Shown here: positions 39,001 through 45,000 of the stretch, one piece after another
Position numbering within the stretch: position 1 is the first letter of the stretch
Layout of the letters: each line of letters begins with the position of its first letter
NCBI GenBank assembly: GCA_963726745.1
Contig: CAVSDR010000006.1
Span: forward strand, 256,001-320,000
Source: an uncultured Verrucomicrobiae bacterium
GTDB lineage: Bacteria > Verrucomicrobiota > Verrucomicrobiia > Chthoniobacterales > UBA10450
DNA length: 64,000 nucleotides
Direction: 5' to 3'
Program-made: the position numbers

Positions 39001-42000
39001 AGCACACAGCATCGGCCGGATTTTGAAAACTGCGGGTTAGGCGGAAACGCCGGCCATCTCGACCTGCTCGCGAATCCGGGCTTCGCCGCTGGAGGAGACA
39101 ATCGAGTCGACCAATTTCTGCAGGACTACGCGAATCGCGCGGATGGCGTCGTCGTTCCCCGCGATCGGGTAATCGATCAACTCCGGATCGGCGTTCGTAT
39201 CCACGATCGCGACCGTCGGAATCCCGAGGCGGCGCGCTTCGTTGACGGCATTCTGCTCGCGAGTGGTGTCGATCACCACCATGGCGTCGGGTAATTTCTG
39301 CATCTCAAGGATGCCTTCGAGGTTGCGGCGAAGCTTCGCGCCTTCACGGCCGAGCGCGGCCAGCTCCTGCTTGCCCATCTTTTTGAAGTCGGGCGAGGAC
39401 TCGATCTCTTCGATATATTTCAAGCGGCCGATGCTCTTGCGGATGGTCGCGAGATTGGTCAGCGTGCCGCCGAGCCAGCGCTGGTTGACGAAAAATTGTC
39501 CGCACGCCTGGGCCGCTTCCTTGACCGCTTCCTGCGCCTGCTTCTTGCAGCCGACGAACAGAATCTTGCCGCCGCGCCGGGTCACTTCCTGGAGGAAATC
39601 GGTCGCTGTCTGCAGCTGCTTGACCGTCTCGTCGAGGTTGATGATGTAAATCTGGTTGCGCTGCTCGAAAATGAACGGCTTCATCTTCGGGTTCCAGCGC
39701 TTGGTCTGGTGGCCGAAGTGGACGCCCGCTTCGAGCAATTCCGGAACTAATTCTGTTGCTGTCGCCATAGGGTAAAACGTGCGCGCTCCGCGCAATGCGG
39801 AGCGGACGTGGAAGATGCAACGGCGCGCGACAAAGGCAAACAGAATGTTCGCCCAGCGTCACCCAGCTATTTCGCGGCCGAAATCGGCGCGTGGTGGTAG
39901 TCGTGGCAGGTGGTGCAATTGCTCGCGACTTTCCCCGCCGGGCTGTGGCAGGCGACGCAGGAAGCCTTCGCCGGCAGGAGGACATCTGCCGTCTCGCGGC
40001 TGGCGGTCGCGTGATGGCAATCATTGCAACCCACGCTCTGGTGCTTCGCGTGGTTGAACTGGCCATGCAGCAGCCAGCGATCGACCAGGATCGGCTTTGT
40101 GACGAGCGGCGCGCCATGCGCCGCCGGTTTCACCTCGTGGCAAAAGGCGCAGCCATGGAAGACGCTGCCGATCGGCGGCGCGCTCCCTTCCACCTGGCGA
40201 TAGGGATCGCTCGTGAAAAAAATCTGCCGCTCGAAGTCCTCGCCGGAGCGCACCCGCTCGCGCAATTGTGTGAGCTGCGCGGCCACGAAACGCTCCCGCT
40301 GCGCTGGACTCGTTAGGCCCTTGCTCACCGCCAGCGCTTCGTATTGCCCCGGCAGCGTGCGCAGAAAACCGCGGACCGCCGCGGGATCGCCATGCGGCAA
40401 AGTGAGCTCGGGATTGCGCGGGTCGAACTGAAGCGCATGGCAGCTTCGGCAGTTCGCTTCGAAGCTGATCCGCCGCAGGTAGCGCCCGTCCGGCTCCGGC
40501 TGGTGGCAGCTGGCGCACTCGAGGCGCCGGCCATGAGACAGCGGGATGTCCGCCGCGAAGTGGCGTTGGTGATTGAAGCGCAGCGTGTCCGGATCGCGCG
40601 CCTGGTTTTGCTCCCAACGGAAGTCGGGATGCGCGCCATCGAAGCGCGCGAAGACCTGCGTCTGCCCATCCGGCGGCCGCGGAAGCTGCAGGGCCGCGCG
40701 CTGCGCGAGGTTGCGCGGCGGCGGGAAGGCGCTCGCAGGGAGCTGCCGGCCGAGCGCGGCCGAGGCCTGCATGACCTTGCGGTCGTTATGGCAGGCCGCG
40801 CAATCGCGATCGCTCGCGAGCGAGATCGCCTCCGGTCCGCGGTGTTCCTGGTGGCACGCGGAGCAGGAGCGATTCGCGACCACCGTGGGCGCATGAAAAT
40901 CCCGATCCGCGTGACAGTTGGCGCACTTGCCGTCGATCAGCGCCACCGTCGTGCGCAGGTTAAATTGCTGCCCGAGGGCAAAGCCGAGCTTGTAAGGATC
41001 GAGCAACTCGCGCGGCGCCAGCTTTGGCTGGTGGCACTTCGCGCAATCCTGCGCGATGAGCGCATGACCGCTCGAGATCGCGCCCGGATTGAAGAACTCC
41101 GGGTTGGCGTGTCGATGGTAATACAGCACCGCGAGCAGGCCGCCGACGAGCGCGACGAAGCTGACCGCGATGCGCGCTGCGCGCCAGGGATGCAGCCGTT
41201 TGTAATAAGCCAGATTGCCCTTGTAGCGCTCGGCGATCTGCTTCTGCGTGCGCGTCGGCTCGGCCATCGGTCAGAAGCGGAAGAGCGCCACGTAGGCGTG
41301 CCAGATGGTGACGAGGATGAGCACAAAGGAAAACGGCACGTGCACGAAAAGCCAGCCGTGCAGCCAATGGTGCATCCGCGTTTGCGCGTCGAGCAGCCGG
41401 CGCTCGTCGCACCAGGCCTCGATCTCATCCGCGCGCGGGCGGTAACCGAGCGCGATCCGCAACTTCAGGAAGCGAAAAAGCTCGTCGCTGTAGCGGCGTT
41501 CGCCCAGGCGCAGGCGGCGGCCGTTGCGCGCACGCAGATACGGCAGGATTTGCCGTTCGATGAAATCAGCCAGCACTTTCTCCGATTCCGGATCGCCCGG
41601 GGCCGGCGCGGGTTTTGGCGGCGGCGCGGTCACGGTCGCGGCCGTCAAGGCGGAGTCGGAGGCGCTCTTCGCGCGGGCCGTGGGCGTGGTCACGGTCGGC
41701 GTCGCCGCGGCCATCGGCGCGGGCGCGGTTTTCTTTTCCGTCGCGGGCGCCGGCCGGAAGGAATCGCGCATCTTTTCCGCGGCCGCGCAGAGCTGCGCGC
41801 GGATGTGCGGGATTTGTTCGTAGACGGTTTCCGCGGGCAGGCGTTCCTTCATCAGGCGCGGGAGATGATGCTGCAGGATCAGGCCATAGATGCCGCTGGC
41901 CATCACGAAAGCGTAGAGCAGGAGCAACAGCGTGGTCATGGCGCCGCCGAGCCGGAAGCCGCTGTGCAGCGCCACTAGCGGAATCGTCAGGAGCGTGAGC

Positions 42001-45000
42001 CAAATGTGCGCGCGCAGCCAAAGTTGCACCCGGCCGACGCGCCAGAGCGGAATCTTTTTCCGCAGCCCGAGGAGCGCGGCGAACAGAAAAATAGCCAGCG
42101 AGATGGCGCCGTAGAGCACGCCCAGCGGCGTACCGCCGACGTGCCCGCGCGACGGCGGGGTGGCGCCGAAAATAGCCGGCAACTCGAACGCGAAAGGGAG
42201 ACTCTGCGGATGGAAATTTGCCAGGTAGAGCACCACCGCCGCGGCCGTGGCGGCGAGGGTAAACACGAGCCAGGGAAGATGGGTGCGATTAACAATGCGC
42301 ATGCGACCGGGACCCGAAAAACCTCAATGCGTGCGATGGGTTTCCACGTGCTCCGAGGTCGCCCATTCGTGCTGGAGAATTTCATCCTGCGCGCGCAGGG
42401 CGTCGCCGAAGAAACGCTGCGGGTCGACGCGCTTGGCGGCATCGTGCGGGCAGGCGTAAACGCAGCTCGGGGTGGAAAGCTGCGTGCAGAGGTCGCAGGT
42501 GTTCGCCTTAAAAGCGGTCGTCTTTTTCTTCTCCACCTTCACCTTCGGCGGTTCGCCTTCGACCTTCGATTTAATCTCCGTGCGCACCTCCTTGGTCACT
42601 TCCAGCGGGTGCATGTTGATGTTGCCGTAAGGGCAAAGCTCGGCGCACTTCCCGCAGCCGATGCACCAGTCCTCGATGATGATCTCGAGGTTCTCCTTTC
42701 GCCGGATCGAGCCGACCGGGCACTGCGTCATGCAGAGCGGATCGCGGCACGAGCGACAGGCCGTGGCCACGAGGTAGTGATCGTAGCGCAGGCCGTCGCG
42801 CAGGAGTCGCGAAACCCCATCGTGCGCCTTTGCGCAAGCCTGCACGCAGGCATCGCAGCGGGTGCAATTATCGAGATCGATAAGCAACAAATTCTGCGCC
42901 TCGAAAAGGCCTTGGTTCAGGAAATCGTCGAGCTGCAGGCCGGTAGGCAGGGTGCGCGGCGCGCTCGCGGCCACGCGCGCCGCGGCCACGGCTTCGAGTT
43001 GCGCTCTCACCTCGGGAAATTGCGCCAGCATCGCCTCGAATTGCGCCGCTGGGATCTTCACCACGTCGACCGCATCGAGCGCGGCGCAGGTCGCATTGCG
43101 CGTGGTCGCACGCAGCAGGCCGATCTCGCCGAAGTAATCGCCCCGGCCCAGATAAGTGCGCACCATTTCGCCGCCTGGCATGGCCTGCGAGACCCGCACC
43201 ATGCCCGAACGGATGAGGTAGAATGCATCTGCCTCTTCGCCTTCGCGGCAGATGACCTCGTTTTGATTGTAAGAGATCAACTCTACCTGCGCTTTCAGGT
43301 CCTCGAGGAACTCGTCGCTCAAGGTCGCGAAGAGCGGAACCGCGCGCAGGTGCGTGCTCAGGGAACGCTCCCGGTATTTCTGCTCCACCTCTTTCTTGAA
43401 CGAGGTGCCTTTGAACGTCGGCGCCTTCACCTTCGAGGTCGCCTTGCTCGCATCCGAGACCTGGCGCGTGCCCACGAGCATGTCCAAAATCACGCGCAGC
43501 ATCTCCACCATCACGCACGGCTCGCGCGCCTGCACCGTGGCCGAGCGCGGCTGGAAGGTGCGGCAAGTCATTTCCCCGAAGAGCTCGCCCGGCCCGAGTT
43601 GCGCCAGCGGTCGCTGCAACGGCAGGTCGACGTTCGCGTCGATGCTGATGAACTTCCGCTCGTGCGCCTCCGGCCGGCGGTCATCCGCGTCGTCCACCAG
43701 GAAGCTCTTCATCCGCGCGACGCTCCGCCAGAAAAGCCGCTTCGCCGGCGCCGTCCGCAGGTGCGCCAGCGGATTCTGGATGAAAATGTCGACTGATCCC
43801 GAGACGATGTAGTAGGCCGTGGAGCCGAACGCCCCTTCCTCGCAGACGATTTCGCCCGGGGCGTAGCGATGGAGCGCGGCTGCTCCCTTGGCCCAGTTCT
43901 CCAGCTGGGCACGCGGCAACTCCTGCAGCGCCGGGAGATACTCCAGCAACTGCTCGATCGTGAGCGGCGTCCCTCCGCTGAGCTTCTCGGTCACCTCTGC
44001 CATGGTTTCGTTAGGCCATTTGCCTCGGGCCCGGGATGGTAGAGAGGTGGGCGCGCGCTGAAAAGCAAACTTCCGCGCCCGGTGCTTGCCGACCCCGGCG
44101 AAAGCGCGGAATCTCTTTCCCTCATCGCCATGGACGCCAACGAAGAAAGCATCGCCGAAGACGTAGCCGCCGCCGGGGTTCCCGCGGCCACTGAAGGCAA
44201 GCCAATGAGCGAGCTCGAGCGCATCCGCCATTCCTGCGCTCACGTCCTCGCGACCGCGATCCTCAAGCTCTGGCCGGAGGCGCAATTCGCCGCCGGGCCG
44301 CCGGTGGAAAACGGTTTCTACTACGATGTCGATCTGCCGCACCGGATCACCCCGGAAGACTTCGCGAAGATCGAGGCCGAGATGAAAAAGGAGACAAAGG
44401 CGAACCACCCCTTCGAGCGCGTGGTTGTTTCGCGCGACGAGGCCCTCGCGCTGGCCCGCGAAGGCAAACTGGCCGCGCTCGGCGCGCGCAATGCGCCGTC
44501 TAAATTCAAGCTCGATATCGTGGAGCACATCCCCGAGGGCGAAGAAATCTCGCTCTATCGCAACGGCGAATTCACCGACCTCTGCGCCGGCCCGCACGTC
44601 ATGCGCACCGGGAACATCGGCGCCTTCCGCCTCACCCACGTGGCCAGCGCCTACTACAAAGGCGACGAGAAAAATCCGCAACTCCAGCGCATCTACGGCA
44701 CCGCTTTTAAGAACAAGACGCAGCTCGAAGAATACTTCGCCATGCTCGAGGAGGCGAAGAAGCGCGACCACCGCAAGCTCGGGAAAGAGCTCGAGCTTTT
44801 CACCTTCGACGACGACGTCGGCCCCGGCCTTCCGCTCTGGCTCCCGCGCGGCGCCGCCATCATCGAGGAACTCGAAAAGCTCGCCAAGGAAACGGAATTC
44901 GCCGCTGGCTACCAGCGAGTGCGCACGCCGCACATTGCCCGGGAGAATCTGTACCTAACGAGCGGTCACCTGCCCTACTACGCCGACTCGATGTTCCCGC

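Follow-up and report, generated by a model that had tools for sequence, protein, structure and literature searches.

A ptdEFG-type gene trio in a soil verrucomicrobium, a probable transmembrane electron path with cyclic-nucleotide-binding domains

In the Tmc, Hmc and DsrMKJOP complexes of sulfate reducers, a cytochrome b in the membrane links a cytoplasmic Fe-S subunit of the HdrD/CCG type to a multi-haem cytochrome c in the periplasm. These complexes are not known to carry cNMP-binding domains, and electron flow through them is thought to be directed inward, towards sulfite reduction. For the ferric-reductase-domain (FRD) superfamily, PMC3591440 describes two haems stacked across the membrane on four histidines in TM3 and TM5; in NOX2 these are the pairs H101/H115 and H209/H222, the first member of each pair serving the inner haem, and NOX5 and DUOX are gated by the second messenger Ca2+. 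According to PMC12525009, a cytosolic NADH oxidoreductase supplies MsrQ, which delivers the electrons to periplasmic MsrP (Fre-MsrQ-MsrP). Finally, a preprint (bioRxiv 10.1101/2023.11.21.568154) named the gene set ptdABCDEFG in marine or saline Proteobacteria, Nitrospirales and Planctomycetes, and called its function "completely unknown". Three of its products are a cNMP-binding Fe-S protein (PtdE), a ferric-reductase-like membrane protein (PtdF) and a deca-haem cytochrome (PtdG). The set has been named there and never studied.

Here we analysed a stretch of 64,000 nucleotides (the window) from an uncultured Verrucomicrobiae bacterium, which carries three genes of these types on the minus strand. 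As the first-pass annotation had reported, gene A (42324-44003, 559 aa; cytoplasmic input subunit, PtdE type), gene B (41271-42302, 343 aa; membrane subunit of five helices and putative di-haem b protein, PtdF type) and gene C (39867-41267, 466 aa; periplasmic deca-haem cytochrome c with a membrane anchor, PtdG type) form one series, with spacings of 21 nt between A and B and 3 nt between B and C. Domain content, hydropathy and the counts of Cys and CxxCH motifs agree with the proposed three-part architecture and membrane topology. The trio had been presented as a new kind of wire, but gene types and order match those of ptdEFG, as judged by the descriptions in the preprint, and the same trio has already been named (bioRxiv 10.1101/2023.11.21.568154). 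We give a probability of roughly 55% to the reading that A, B and C form a ptdEFG-type inner-membrane module, independent of quinone, which passes electrons derived from cytoplasmic NAD(P)H to the periplasm and is probably gated by cAMP or cGMP.

Gene B contains five hydrophobic segments and, in the topology predicted with the help of its basic residues (1-6, 82-91, 145-312), a helical insert that separates TM4 from TM5 on the cytoplasmic side. Two histidine pairs with H-x13-H spacing, H99 and H113 in TM3 (41964-42008, minus strand) and H321 and H335 in TM5 (41298-41342, minus strand), are invariant in 47/47 rows of an alignment of representatives with pairwise identities of up to 50%, which extends the earlier observation of their invariance; W95, W317 and P148 are likewise invariant. 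No Pfam or NCBIfam family matches B at threshold. To call it a protein of no family was nevertheless too strong, as its 47 family members match DUF4405 (30), Ferric_reduct (15, best 1.8e-5) and Ni_hydr_CYTB (13), all weakly and all di-haem b families. Together with the histidine pattern described in PMC3591440, these matches identify B as a divergent protein of the ferric-reductase/di-haem-b type, which on sequence grounds would bind haem b.

A deeper alignment yielded a model of B with a pLDDT of 89.1 and a pTM of 0.80, in place of the mediocre one (pLDDT 65) obtained before. Its fold matches are still generic helical bundles (Foldseek, VIA): STEAP1/2 was reached by Foldseek only at an E of ~5.5, and VIA placed CybB (5oc0) at rank 49 (Z 6.9, rmsd 3.3, 130 residues aligned). 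The figure of about 1850 homologues at E<=1e-20 carried a wrong threshold; we counted 1855 at E<=0.001 among 8000 candidates scored, and an exhaustive search gave 1958 clusters (50% identity) at E<=1e-3, of which 953 reached <=1e-10 and 321 reached <=1e-30. That none of them bears a name holds apart from one JGI record called 'FimV', a name that in our reading stems from the low-complexity loop.

Gene C contains 10 CxxCH motifs and 29 histidines. Hydropathy places a single anchor helix at residues 29-51 (41115-41183, minus strand), preceded by a basic N-terminus, so that the earlier description of ten motifs and one N-terminal TM helix stands. Pfam matches are to Cytochrome_C7 (2.9e-12) and Paired_CXXCH_1, and a solved match is the GSU1996-type cytochrome 3ov0 (7.8e-6).

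Gene A, whose start Met is common to homologues, has neither a hydrophobic or TM segment nor a signal peptide in the hydropathy scan. Its C-terminal HydN/HycB-like ferredoxin domain (residues 373-530; 42414-42887, minus strand) contains 16 Cys for 4 x [4Fe-4S], arranged as CxxCxxCxxxC, CxxCx4CxxxC, CxxCxxCxxxC and CxxCx7CxxxC; 13 of these positions are kept in 60/60 homologues and the other 3 in 59/60. Several Fer4 families match it, and the NCBIfam HydN match (2.8e-14) lies below the cut-off (score 53 against 260).

To examine the junction of the two proteins, B with two haems and residues 355-559 of A were co-folded next to three controls. The A-B score was 0.74, compared with 0.00 for the best control, a mark that 116/157 solved complexes and 2/215 mismatched pairs reach. 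The runs agreed in at least 95% of contacts, with a partner pLDDT of at least 77. The predicted interface involves residues 1-2, 7, 82-96, 144-161 and 311-315 of B and 377-393, 401-409 and 509-522 of A, and places the first Fe-S motif of A on the predicted cytoplasmic face of B, beside H99 and H321. Solved structures show Fe-S subunits bound to a di-haem b anchor (Fdn-N, Nar), and part of this result may reflect likeness to them, even though the PDB contains no relative of B by sequence. The co-fold supports the A-B half of the wire proposed earlier, and the constant pairing of B with C supports the other half.

B and C are adjacent in 76/80 related loci, the remaining 4 ending at a contig edge, and are thus the constant core of these loci. 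A lies directly upstream of B in 50/80. In 17/80 loci A is long (826-897 aa) and has an additional NuoG-like 2Fe-2S/4Fe-4S N-terminus; in all 17 it directly follows a NuoE-NuoF fusion with FMN/NADH-binding domains. Neighbours of 46 A-B-C loci show no comparable pattern, since the most frequent families occur in at most 13 of them and those that recur are unrelated housekeeping genes.

The host genome also encodes the paralogous trio noted before, on a second contig (C3:277196-281991), with A' of 574 aa, B' of 277 aa, for which the DUF4405 match at E 0.0024 was reproduced, and C' of 749 aa, which contains 10 CxxCH motifs and a single TM helix at 95-122. Each of the seven Ptd gene types has a match in this cluster, arranged as A-B-C / D-E-F-G; one of them is an FNR-like FAD/NAD/2Fe-2S protein. 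A putative barrel and a penta-haem protein stand beside this paralogue only, and not at the window locus. The best solved relative of the penta-haem protein is cytochrome c552 5ze8 (E 3.2e-6), an entry that bears the name used in the preprint for the PtdA homologue and that we take to be this cytochrome. Near the window locus, a Pfam search and the neighbourhood revealed neither a porin nor an outer-membrane cytochrome; nothing seen at this locus points to an outer-membrane step, and the suggested extracellular electron transfer finds no support here.

These loci bear on where the electrons would enter. No flavoprotein donor is encoded with the window copy, but related clusters encode one, a NuoEF-like diaphorase in the variant loci and the FNR-like protein in the ptd-type paralogue, which suggests that NAD(P)H would probably feed A by way of a separate flavoprotein. 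Alternatively, B and C could act as a quinol:cytochrome c (or cytochrome c:quinone) oxidoreductase, as in Geobacter CbcL/CbcBA or CymA, with A as an optional regulated side input or sink. An A-like gene was undetected in 13/80 loci, and once contig-edge cases are set aside, 8 B-C loci (2 of them on short contigs) lack one in the fetched span, so the core may work with another input such as quinol. The weak Ni_hydr_CYTB matches, to a family of quinone-reactive cytochromes b, point the same way, as does the absence of a dehydrogenase gene from the window operon in a family search of the operon and its neighbours. However, A is nearby in at least 17 loci besides the 50 where it adjoins, the co-fold puts an Fe-S cluster at the inner haem of B, both other cluster types encode NAD(P)H flavoproteins, and the sequence and structure tools used recognised no quinone site. 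We regard this alternative as unlikely.

The N-terminal part of A matches Pfam cNMP_binding (6.7e-37) in three stretches, corresponding to two domains. Domain 1 (43494-43871, minus strand; cassette GE-x8-PRSA) is split by an insert of ~70 aa into PF00027 matches at contig positions 299494-299610 and 299776-299871, while domain 2 (43020-43277, minus strand; PF00027 1.1e-22) carries the cassette GEIGLL..RNAT. The earlier assignment of cNMP_binding, Fer4 and 16 Cys in four cluster-type groups is thereby reproduced. Canonical phosphate-binding cassettes (Gly-Glu ... Arg-[STA]-Ala) are intact in 59/60 homologues for each domain, and the best solved relatives of domain 2 are the cNMP-binding domains of PKG and PKA (E 3e-18), true cGMP/cAMP receptors. 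A gene with CHASE2 and Guanylate_cyc domains is adjacent in 10 of these 17 variants; in locus L047 its reading frame and the start of NuoEF overlap, and in L019 it lies directly upstream of B. The host itself has cyclases and ~8 cNMP-binding proteins. The proposed cNMP switching gains support from the kept cassettes and the adjoining cyclase. A real complex whose domains bind another ligand, sense redox through thiols or serve assembly seems improbable to us against these observations, even with the conserved non-cluster Cys in or beside both cassettes (C54 and C147 in 59/60 homologues, C306 in 58/60), the insert in domain 1, the lost cassette of domain 2 in A' and the other effectors that CRP/FNR-type folds bind.

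In the reading that we favour, the cytoplasmic A would form a chain of four [4Fe-4S] clusters, the first of which (C380/C383/C386 and C518) is predicted to dock on the cytoplasmic ends of TM3, TM4 and TM5 of B. Electrons would continue through two stacked b haems, the inner on H99 and H321 and the outer on H113 and H335, as in ferric-reductase/NOX-type domains, and reach the periplasmic C with its ten bis-His c haems. Flow would most likely be outward and bypass the quinone pool, a direction that follows from thermodynamic reasoning only. Binding of cAMP or cGMP to the two domains of A may switch the path on or off, which would be sensible, since the path would drain reducing power and membrane potential. 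Flow from periplasmic or extracellular donors through C, B and A to cytoplasmic ferredoxin or NAD+ would be in line with the reversibility of NuoEF/HoxFU-type modules in other enzymes. It would also suit the ptd genes noted in nitrite-oxidising Nitrospirales (bioRxiv 10.1101/2023.11.21.568154), which need reverse electron flow, but we consider it very doubtful, as the membrane potential would work against transfer from the positive to the negative side, the potential of NAD+ as an acceptor is very low, no cluster type has a pumping or energy-coupling subunit, and the host looks like a heterotroph, with three haem-copper oxidase genes.

Compared with the FRD superfamily (NOX, FRE, MsrQ(YedZ)/STEAP), B shares the four histidines in TM3 and TM5 and their spacing and, in our reading, the two haems stacked on them; the proposed path would resemble this superfamily in leading electrons outward from a cytoplasmic NAD(P)H-linked reductase, and its proposed gating would resemble the second-messenger control of NOX5 and DUOX. 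B differs in its five predicted helices instead of six, its long cytoplasmic helical insert and the absence of a Pfam match at threshold; electrons would enter it from a four-cluster Fe-S protein and not from a flavin domain, and would leave it for a deca-haem cytochrome in place of O2, Fe(III) or a molybdoenzyme. With Tmc, Hmc and DsrMKJOP the trio shares the logic of a transmembrane electron path, and C matches a TmcA-type family weakly (7.9e-8, short of the NCBIfam cut-off), whereas A is HydN-like, with no CCG family found by Pfam. The 16-Cys pattern of A is common to HydN/HycB/FdnH-type subunits, and HDCR HycB3/HycB4 (~1e-15) and FHL HycB match it in sequence (range 1e-15 to 2e-10); unlike them, A carries two cNMP-binding domains in the same chain, and its partner is a haem b / haem c module instead of a hydrogenase or formate dehydrogenase. 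What this analysis adds is the type of B and a good model of it, the A-B co-fold, the constant B-C core and the variant loci with NuoEF and CHASE2 cyclase genes. Relative to ptd itself, we count four clusters in the E-type protein where the preprint states two for PtdE, and the window copy is a bare EFG-type module, free of the penta-haem, porin, FAD/NAD oxidoreductase and tetra-haem genes, in a soil Chthoniobacterales-type verrucomicrobium rather than in a marine or saline host.

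The operon consists of three genes on the minus strand, and its open reading frames, domains and motifs, as described in the first-pass annotation, were borne out by our ORF, Pfam and hydropathy checks. Gene A (42324-44003) encodes a protein of 559 aa with two cNMP-binding domains and a C-terminal ferredoxin domain. It is separated by 21 nt from gene B (41271-42302; 343 aa), whose product has five hydrophobic segments, and only 3 nt lie between B and gene C (39867-41267; 466 aa), which encodes a cytochrome with 10 CxxCH motifs and an anchor helix. The single transmembrane helix of C spans residues 29-51 and follows a basic N-terminus, and its 29 His suffice to bis-His-ligate all haems. 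The downstream genes on the same strand are rpsB, tsf, a gene for an MscS-type channel that bears a cNMP-binding domain, and one for a H+-pyrophosphatase, while thrS lies upstream on the opposite strand. The scan for promoters and terminators gave no signal above shuffled controls. Among sequencing runs, two from soil DNA shared 6-7% of the sequence words, and no RNA run was listed.

The MscS-type mechanosensitive channel (36742-38244, minus strand) carries its cNMP-binding domain at the C-terminus, making it the second receptor for cyclic nucleotides here; its gene lies downstream of the operon at a distance of 1.6 kb, beyond rpsB-tsf. The thrS gene (44082-46006, plus strand) is broken into two reading frames near 45190-45215, the first matching tRNA_SAD and positions 8-44 of tRNA-synt_2b and the second matching positions 57-179 and the anticodon-binding domain. 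Either a frameshift or an assembly error accounts for the split.

The input subunit, A, matched cNMP_binding (6.7e-37) and Fer4 families of Pfam, with an insert interrupting the first cNMP-binding domain, and a search of the protein for hydrophobic segments found none. Its ferredoxin domain contains 16 Cys in the motifs CxxCxxCxxxC, CxxCx4CxxxC, CxxCxxCxxxC and CxxCx7CxxxC, which we counted as four clusters; 59-60 of 60 homologues retain these Cys. The nearest solved structures were the cNMP-binding domains of PKG/PKA (3e-18) and, among four-cluster subunits, HycB4/HycB3 of HDCR (~1e-15). HydN (NCBIfam equivalog NF007658) was the nearest curated family, but A reached only 53 bits against its cut-off of 260.

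The phosphate-binding cassette, Gly-Glu ... Arg-[STA]-Ala, is intact in both cNMP-binding domains (GEMTCRTFQPRSA in domain 1, GEIGLLRATTRNA in domain 2). Each cassette is retained in 59 of 60 homologues, and the sole loss in domain 2 is that of the paralogue encoded on contig C3 of the same genome. Judged from these cassette sequences, the two domains may act as cAMP/cGMP receptors. Guanylate_cyc was matched five times in the host genome, twice strongly, and its cNMP-binding proteins number about eight; the genome also has three haem-copper oxidase genes and one NuoF. Non-cluster Cys within or beside both cassettes are also kept (C54 and C147 in 59, C306 in 58 and C252 in 43 of 60 homologues), and these might place the sensor domains under thiol or redox control.

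Scans of the membrane subunit, B, against Pfam and NCBIfam matched no family. The exhaustive search yielded 1958 clusters of relatives (at 50% identity) at E<=1e-3, of which 953 remained at <=1e-10 and 321 at <=1e-30, with no meaningful name or Pfam family among the proteins listed. Longer homologues (498-725 aa) were rejected as fused forms of B; they have longer loops and 0 CxxCH. An alignment of 47 rows, including the 25%-identical paralogue from the same genome, contained ten invariant positions: G65, W95, H99, H113, G137, P148, L314, W317, H321 and H335. When the members were scanned singly, weak matches appeared to DUF4405 (30/47), Ferric_reduct (PF01794; 15/47, best 1.8e-5, all sub-threshold) and Ni_hydr_CYTB (13/47), which we take to be members of one di-haem cytochrome b clan. 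B of the window itself did not match Ferric_reduct at the gathering score.

The ferric reductase domain (FRD) superfamily is described as ligating its haems through four canonical His, a pair each in TM3 and TM5 spaced 12-13 residues apart, with the first His of each pair binding the inner haem (PMC3591440). The same arrangement was found in B, where H99/H113 belong to TM3 and H321/H335 to TM5, in all 47 rows. An AlphaFold model of B obtained with the 47-row alignment was confident (pLDDT 89.1, pTM 0.80) and comprises five TM helices, whereas the FRD superfamily has a six-helix core; between TM4 and TM5 it shows a helical bundle interrupted by a disordered Ala/Pro/Thr-rich stretch. Foldseek returned nothing for this model at E<=0.001, with STEAP2 and STEAP1 appearing at E 5.5, and in the VIA-wide comparison the matches were generic helical bundles throughout, Z reaching 9.1 at best and 6.9 for CybB 5oc0 (rmsd 3.3 over 130 residues). 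The search of PDB sequences with the B profile gave no meaningful relative either, its best match being the TRPV3 channel (E 0.3).

Basic residues of B are found at 1-6, 82-91 and 145-312. Because these stretches mark the cytoplasmic side, H99 and H321 are predicted to lie near the inner face of the membrane, with H113 and H335 close to the outer one. To model the contact with A, we co-folded B and two haems with A(355-559), using our own alignments. The co-fold scores were 0.74, 0.73 and 0.74, while the best of three controls scored 0.00. The mark applied is passed by 116 of 157 solved complexes and by 2 of 215 mismatched pairs, counts that serve only as a rough guide here because our own alignments were used and a ligand rode along. 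At least 95% of the contacts agree between runs, and the partner pLDDT is at least 77. The predicted interface joins residues 1-2, 7, 82-96, 144-161 and 311-315 of B to residues 377-393 and 509-522 of A. Its B side coincides exactly with the predicted cytoplasmic face, and the two stretches of A contain the first Fe-S motif and the last Cys pair. A is thus predicted to dock on the cytoplasmic face of B, which is a prediction and not proof. Solved structures include Fe-S subunits in complex with a di-haem anchor, so the score may partly reflect likeness to these.

Genomic stretches encoding a relative of B numbered 528, and we examined the best 80 of them, located with a 12-row alignment of B. 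These 80 belong to Verrucomicrobiota throughout, mostly Chthoniobacterales. B and C are neighbours in 76 loci, and the remaining four stop at the contig edge. A lies immediately upstream of B in 50 of the 80 (46 with the order A-B-C and four with A-B followed by the contig end). In a further 17, B-C is accompanied by an A-like gene elsewhere, at a distance of 9 kb or less, and in 13 an A-like gene was undetected; four of these 13 have NuoEF/long-A fragments at the locus edge, and another is cut short by the contig end. Near B, the best 80 of the 528 loci showed no gene of the rpsB, porin, penta-haem or FNR-like kinds. As for a recurrent partner beside the 46 A-B-C loci, no family occurred in more than 13 of them, and the recurring ones are unrelated housekeeping genes.

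The B family is patchy within the phylum: of 301 genomes sampled, 15 carry it (E<=1e-10). Protein searches with the paralogue and the profile listed matches almost entirely from Chthoniobacterales, and cluster look-ups named only two Planctomycetes records. Look-alike clusters in the Atlas come from Acidobacteriota and Planctomycetota, and these are leads only. We conclude that the module is real and well conserved.

A variant of the locus points to a donor and a signal. In the 17 loci where A lies elsewhere, referred to as NuoEF-type, A is longer (826-897 aa) owing to an extra NuoG-like 2Fe-2S/4Fe-4S N-terminal part, and in 17/17 it directly follows a NuoE-NuoF fusion of 684-723 aa, comprising a thioredoxin-like 2Fe-2S domain, an FMN/NADH-binding 51K domain, SLBB and NADH_4Fe-4S. 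The long A is adjoined by a c554-like tetra-haem gene, and a gene combining CHASE2 and Guanylate_cyc is adjacent in 10/17. The frames of cyclase, NuoEF and long A overlap end-to-start in one such locus (L047), and another (L019) has the order cyclase-B-C-NuoEF-A on one strand. Counting these NuoEF genes and the FNR-like gene beside the C3 paralogue, a flavoprotein that oxidises NAD(P)H is thus encoded by two of the three cluster types, and the CHASE2 cyclase gives one cluster type, in many cases, a cyclase of its own.

The NuoEF-like gene of locus L014 lies in two frames (L014:5476-7540), while it is one ORF in the loci L009, L015, L016, L017, L019 and L047; the split is probably an assembly error. 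An LVIVD-repeat protein of ~740 aa (L014:11364-13586 and homologues) is encoded downstream of B-C in 17/17 NuoEF-type loci, and also occurs in 6 of the 13 loci where an A-like gene was undetected and in L040.

The best-supported reading of the module is a three-subunit wire, in which the four [4Fe-4S] clusters of cytoplasmic A would pass electrons to two b haems of B, which would hand them on to the 10 c haems of periplasmic C. The feed would most likely be NAD(P)H-derived electrons, bypassing quinones, and flow would be outward, favoured by both redox potential and membrane potential. Because the cell would lose reducing power and charge through such a route, it would be sensible for a cyclic nucleotide acting on the input subunit to switch it tightly on and off. 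The wire had been put forward in the first-pass annotation; it gains support here and is extended by the donor module, the cyclase linkage, the docking prediction and the family assignment for B. The extracellular electron transfer proposed alongside it was not borne out at the window locus, where nothing points to an outer-membrane step. We tentatively go further and propose, with a probability of roughly one in three, a gated exit valve: a NOX-like, Fe-S-fed wire of three subunits that would deliver electrons derived from NAD(P)H to periplasmic cytochromes while bypassing the quinone pool, and that would open only when a membrane cyclase, of the CHASE2 type in the variant loci, raises cAMP/cGMP.

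With ~2000 clusters at 50% identity, the B family is large; it lacks a Pfam family and has never been studied. If the wire reading is correct, many soil Verrucomicrobiota, and probably Planctomycetota and others, would carry a quinone-independent export of cytoplasmic reducing power over the inner membrane under direct cyclic-nucleotide control. This would bear on redox balancing, and on how metals or humics may be reduced in oxic-anoxic soils, and would offer a testable mechanism for the unexplained marine Ptd cluster. The valve, if true, would be the first bacterial respiratory-type path in which binding of a cyclic nucleotide to the electron-input subunit directly controls conductance. The NuoEF- and cyclase-linked variants are pointers to the donor and the signal, both missing from the published description.

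We compared the module with known systems. Tmc/Hmc/Dsr-type complexes have an HdrD-like cytoplasmic subunit with a CCG domain, whereas the CCG family is absent from the Pfam matches of A. The full-text literature search returned one description of this system, a preprint naming ptdABCDEFG (bioRxiv 10.1101/2023.11.21.568154). There, PtdA is described as a penta-haem protein, with penta-haem cytochrome c552 cited as its homologue, PtdB as a porin, PtdC as an FAD/NAD(P) oxidoreductase, PtdD as a tetra-haem protein, PtdE as a cNMP-binding Fe-S protein, PtdF as a "transmembrane ferric reductase-like protein" and PtdG as a "periplasmic deca-haem protein". The hosts are marine or saline Alpha- and Gammaproteobacteria, Nitrospirales and Planctomycetes, the suggested role is a porin-cytochrome complex for extracellular electron transfer, or nitrogen cycling, and the function "remains completely unknown" (bioRxiv 10.1101/2023.11.21.568154).

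The second trio of the host genome, on contig C3 (locus L004 of genome G000), encodes A' (574 aa), B' (277 aa) and C' (749 aa, 10 CxxCH). Compared by description, its locus matches all seven Ptd gene types, as given in the preprint, in the same order. The minus strand (L004:918-6000; G000 C3:270918-276000) carries a 714-aa penta-haem protein with 5 CxxCH, a putative barrel of 566 aa ending ...LLLKF and an FNR-like FAD/NAD/2Fe-2S protein (FAD_binding_6/NAD_binding_1/Fer2), and the plus strand a c554-like protein with 4 CxxCH, then A', B' and C'. The best solved relative of the penta-haem protein is cytochrome c552 5ze8 (3.2e-6), presumably the same penta-haem cytochrome that was named as the homologue of PtdA. 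The putative outer-membrane barrel has a zinc-ribbon match at its N-terminus, and 31% of the members of its Atlas look-alike cluster (score 0.93) have Alginate_exp; its identity as a porin or outer-membrane barrel is only a lead. By gene type, the C3 paralogue with its neighbours is a full ptd-type cluster. In C' (L004:9742-11991; G000 C3:279742-281991), the single TM helix (95-122) is preceded by a cytoplasmic N-terminal extension of 94 aa containing 8 Cys; C of the window has no such extension.

Beside the window operon, whose neighbours are rpsB, tsf, the MscS-type channel and thrS, no penta-haem, porin, FAD/NAD(P) oxidoreductase or tetra-haem genes were found. A has the cNMP_binding and Fer4 domains of PtdE, although the preprint states two clusters and we counted four from the 16 Cys. 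The five-helix B, directly after A, has the four-His pattern in keeping with PtdF, Ferric_reduct appearing only sub-threshold and in relatives, and C resembles PtdG in its 10 CxxCH, its anchor helix and its position 3 nt after B. We therefore regard the window operon as a bare EFG-type module, a putative Ptd member by its gene types. The wholly new kind of system claimed in the first-pass annotation was thus not sustained, the gene set having already been named in the preprint; the window module is a stand-alone soil Verrucomicrobiota form of this named, uncharacterised gene set.
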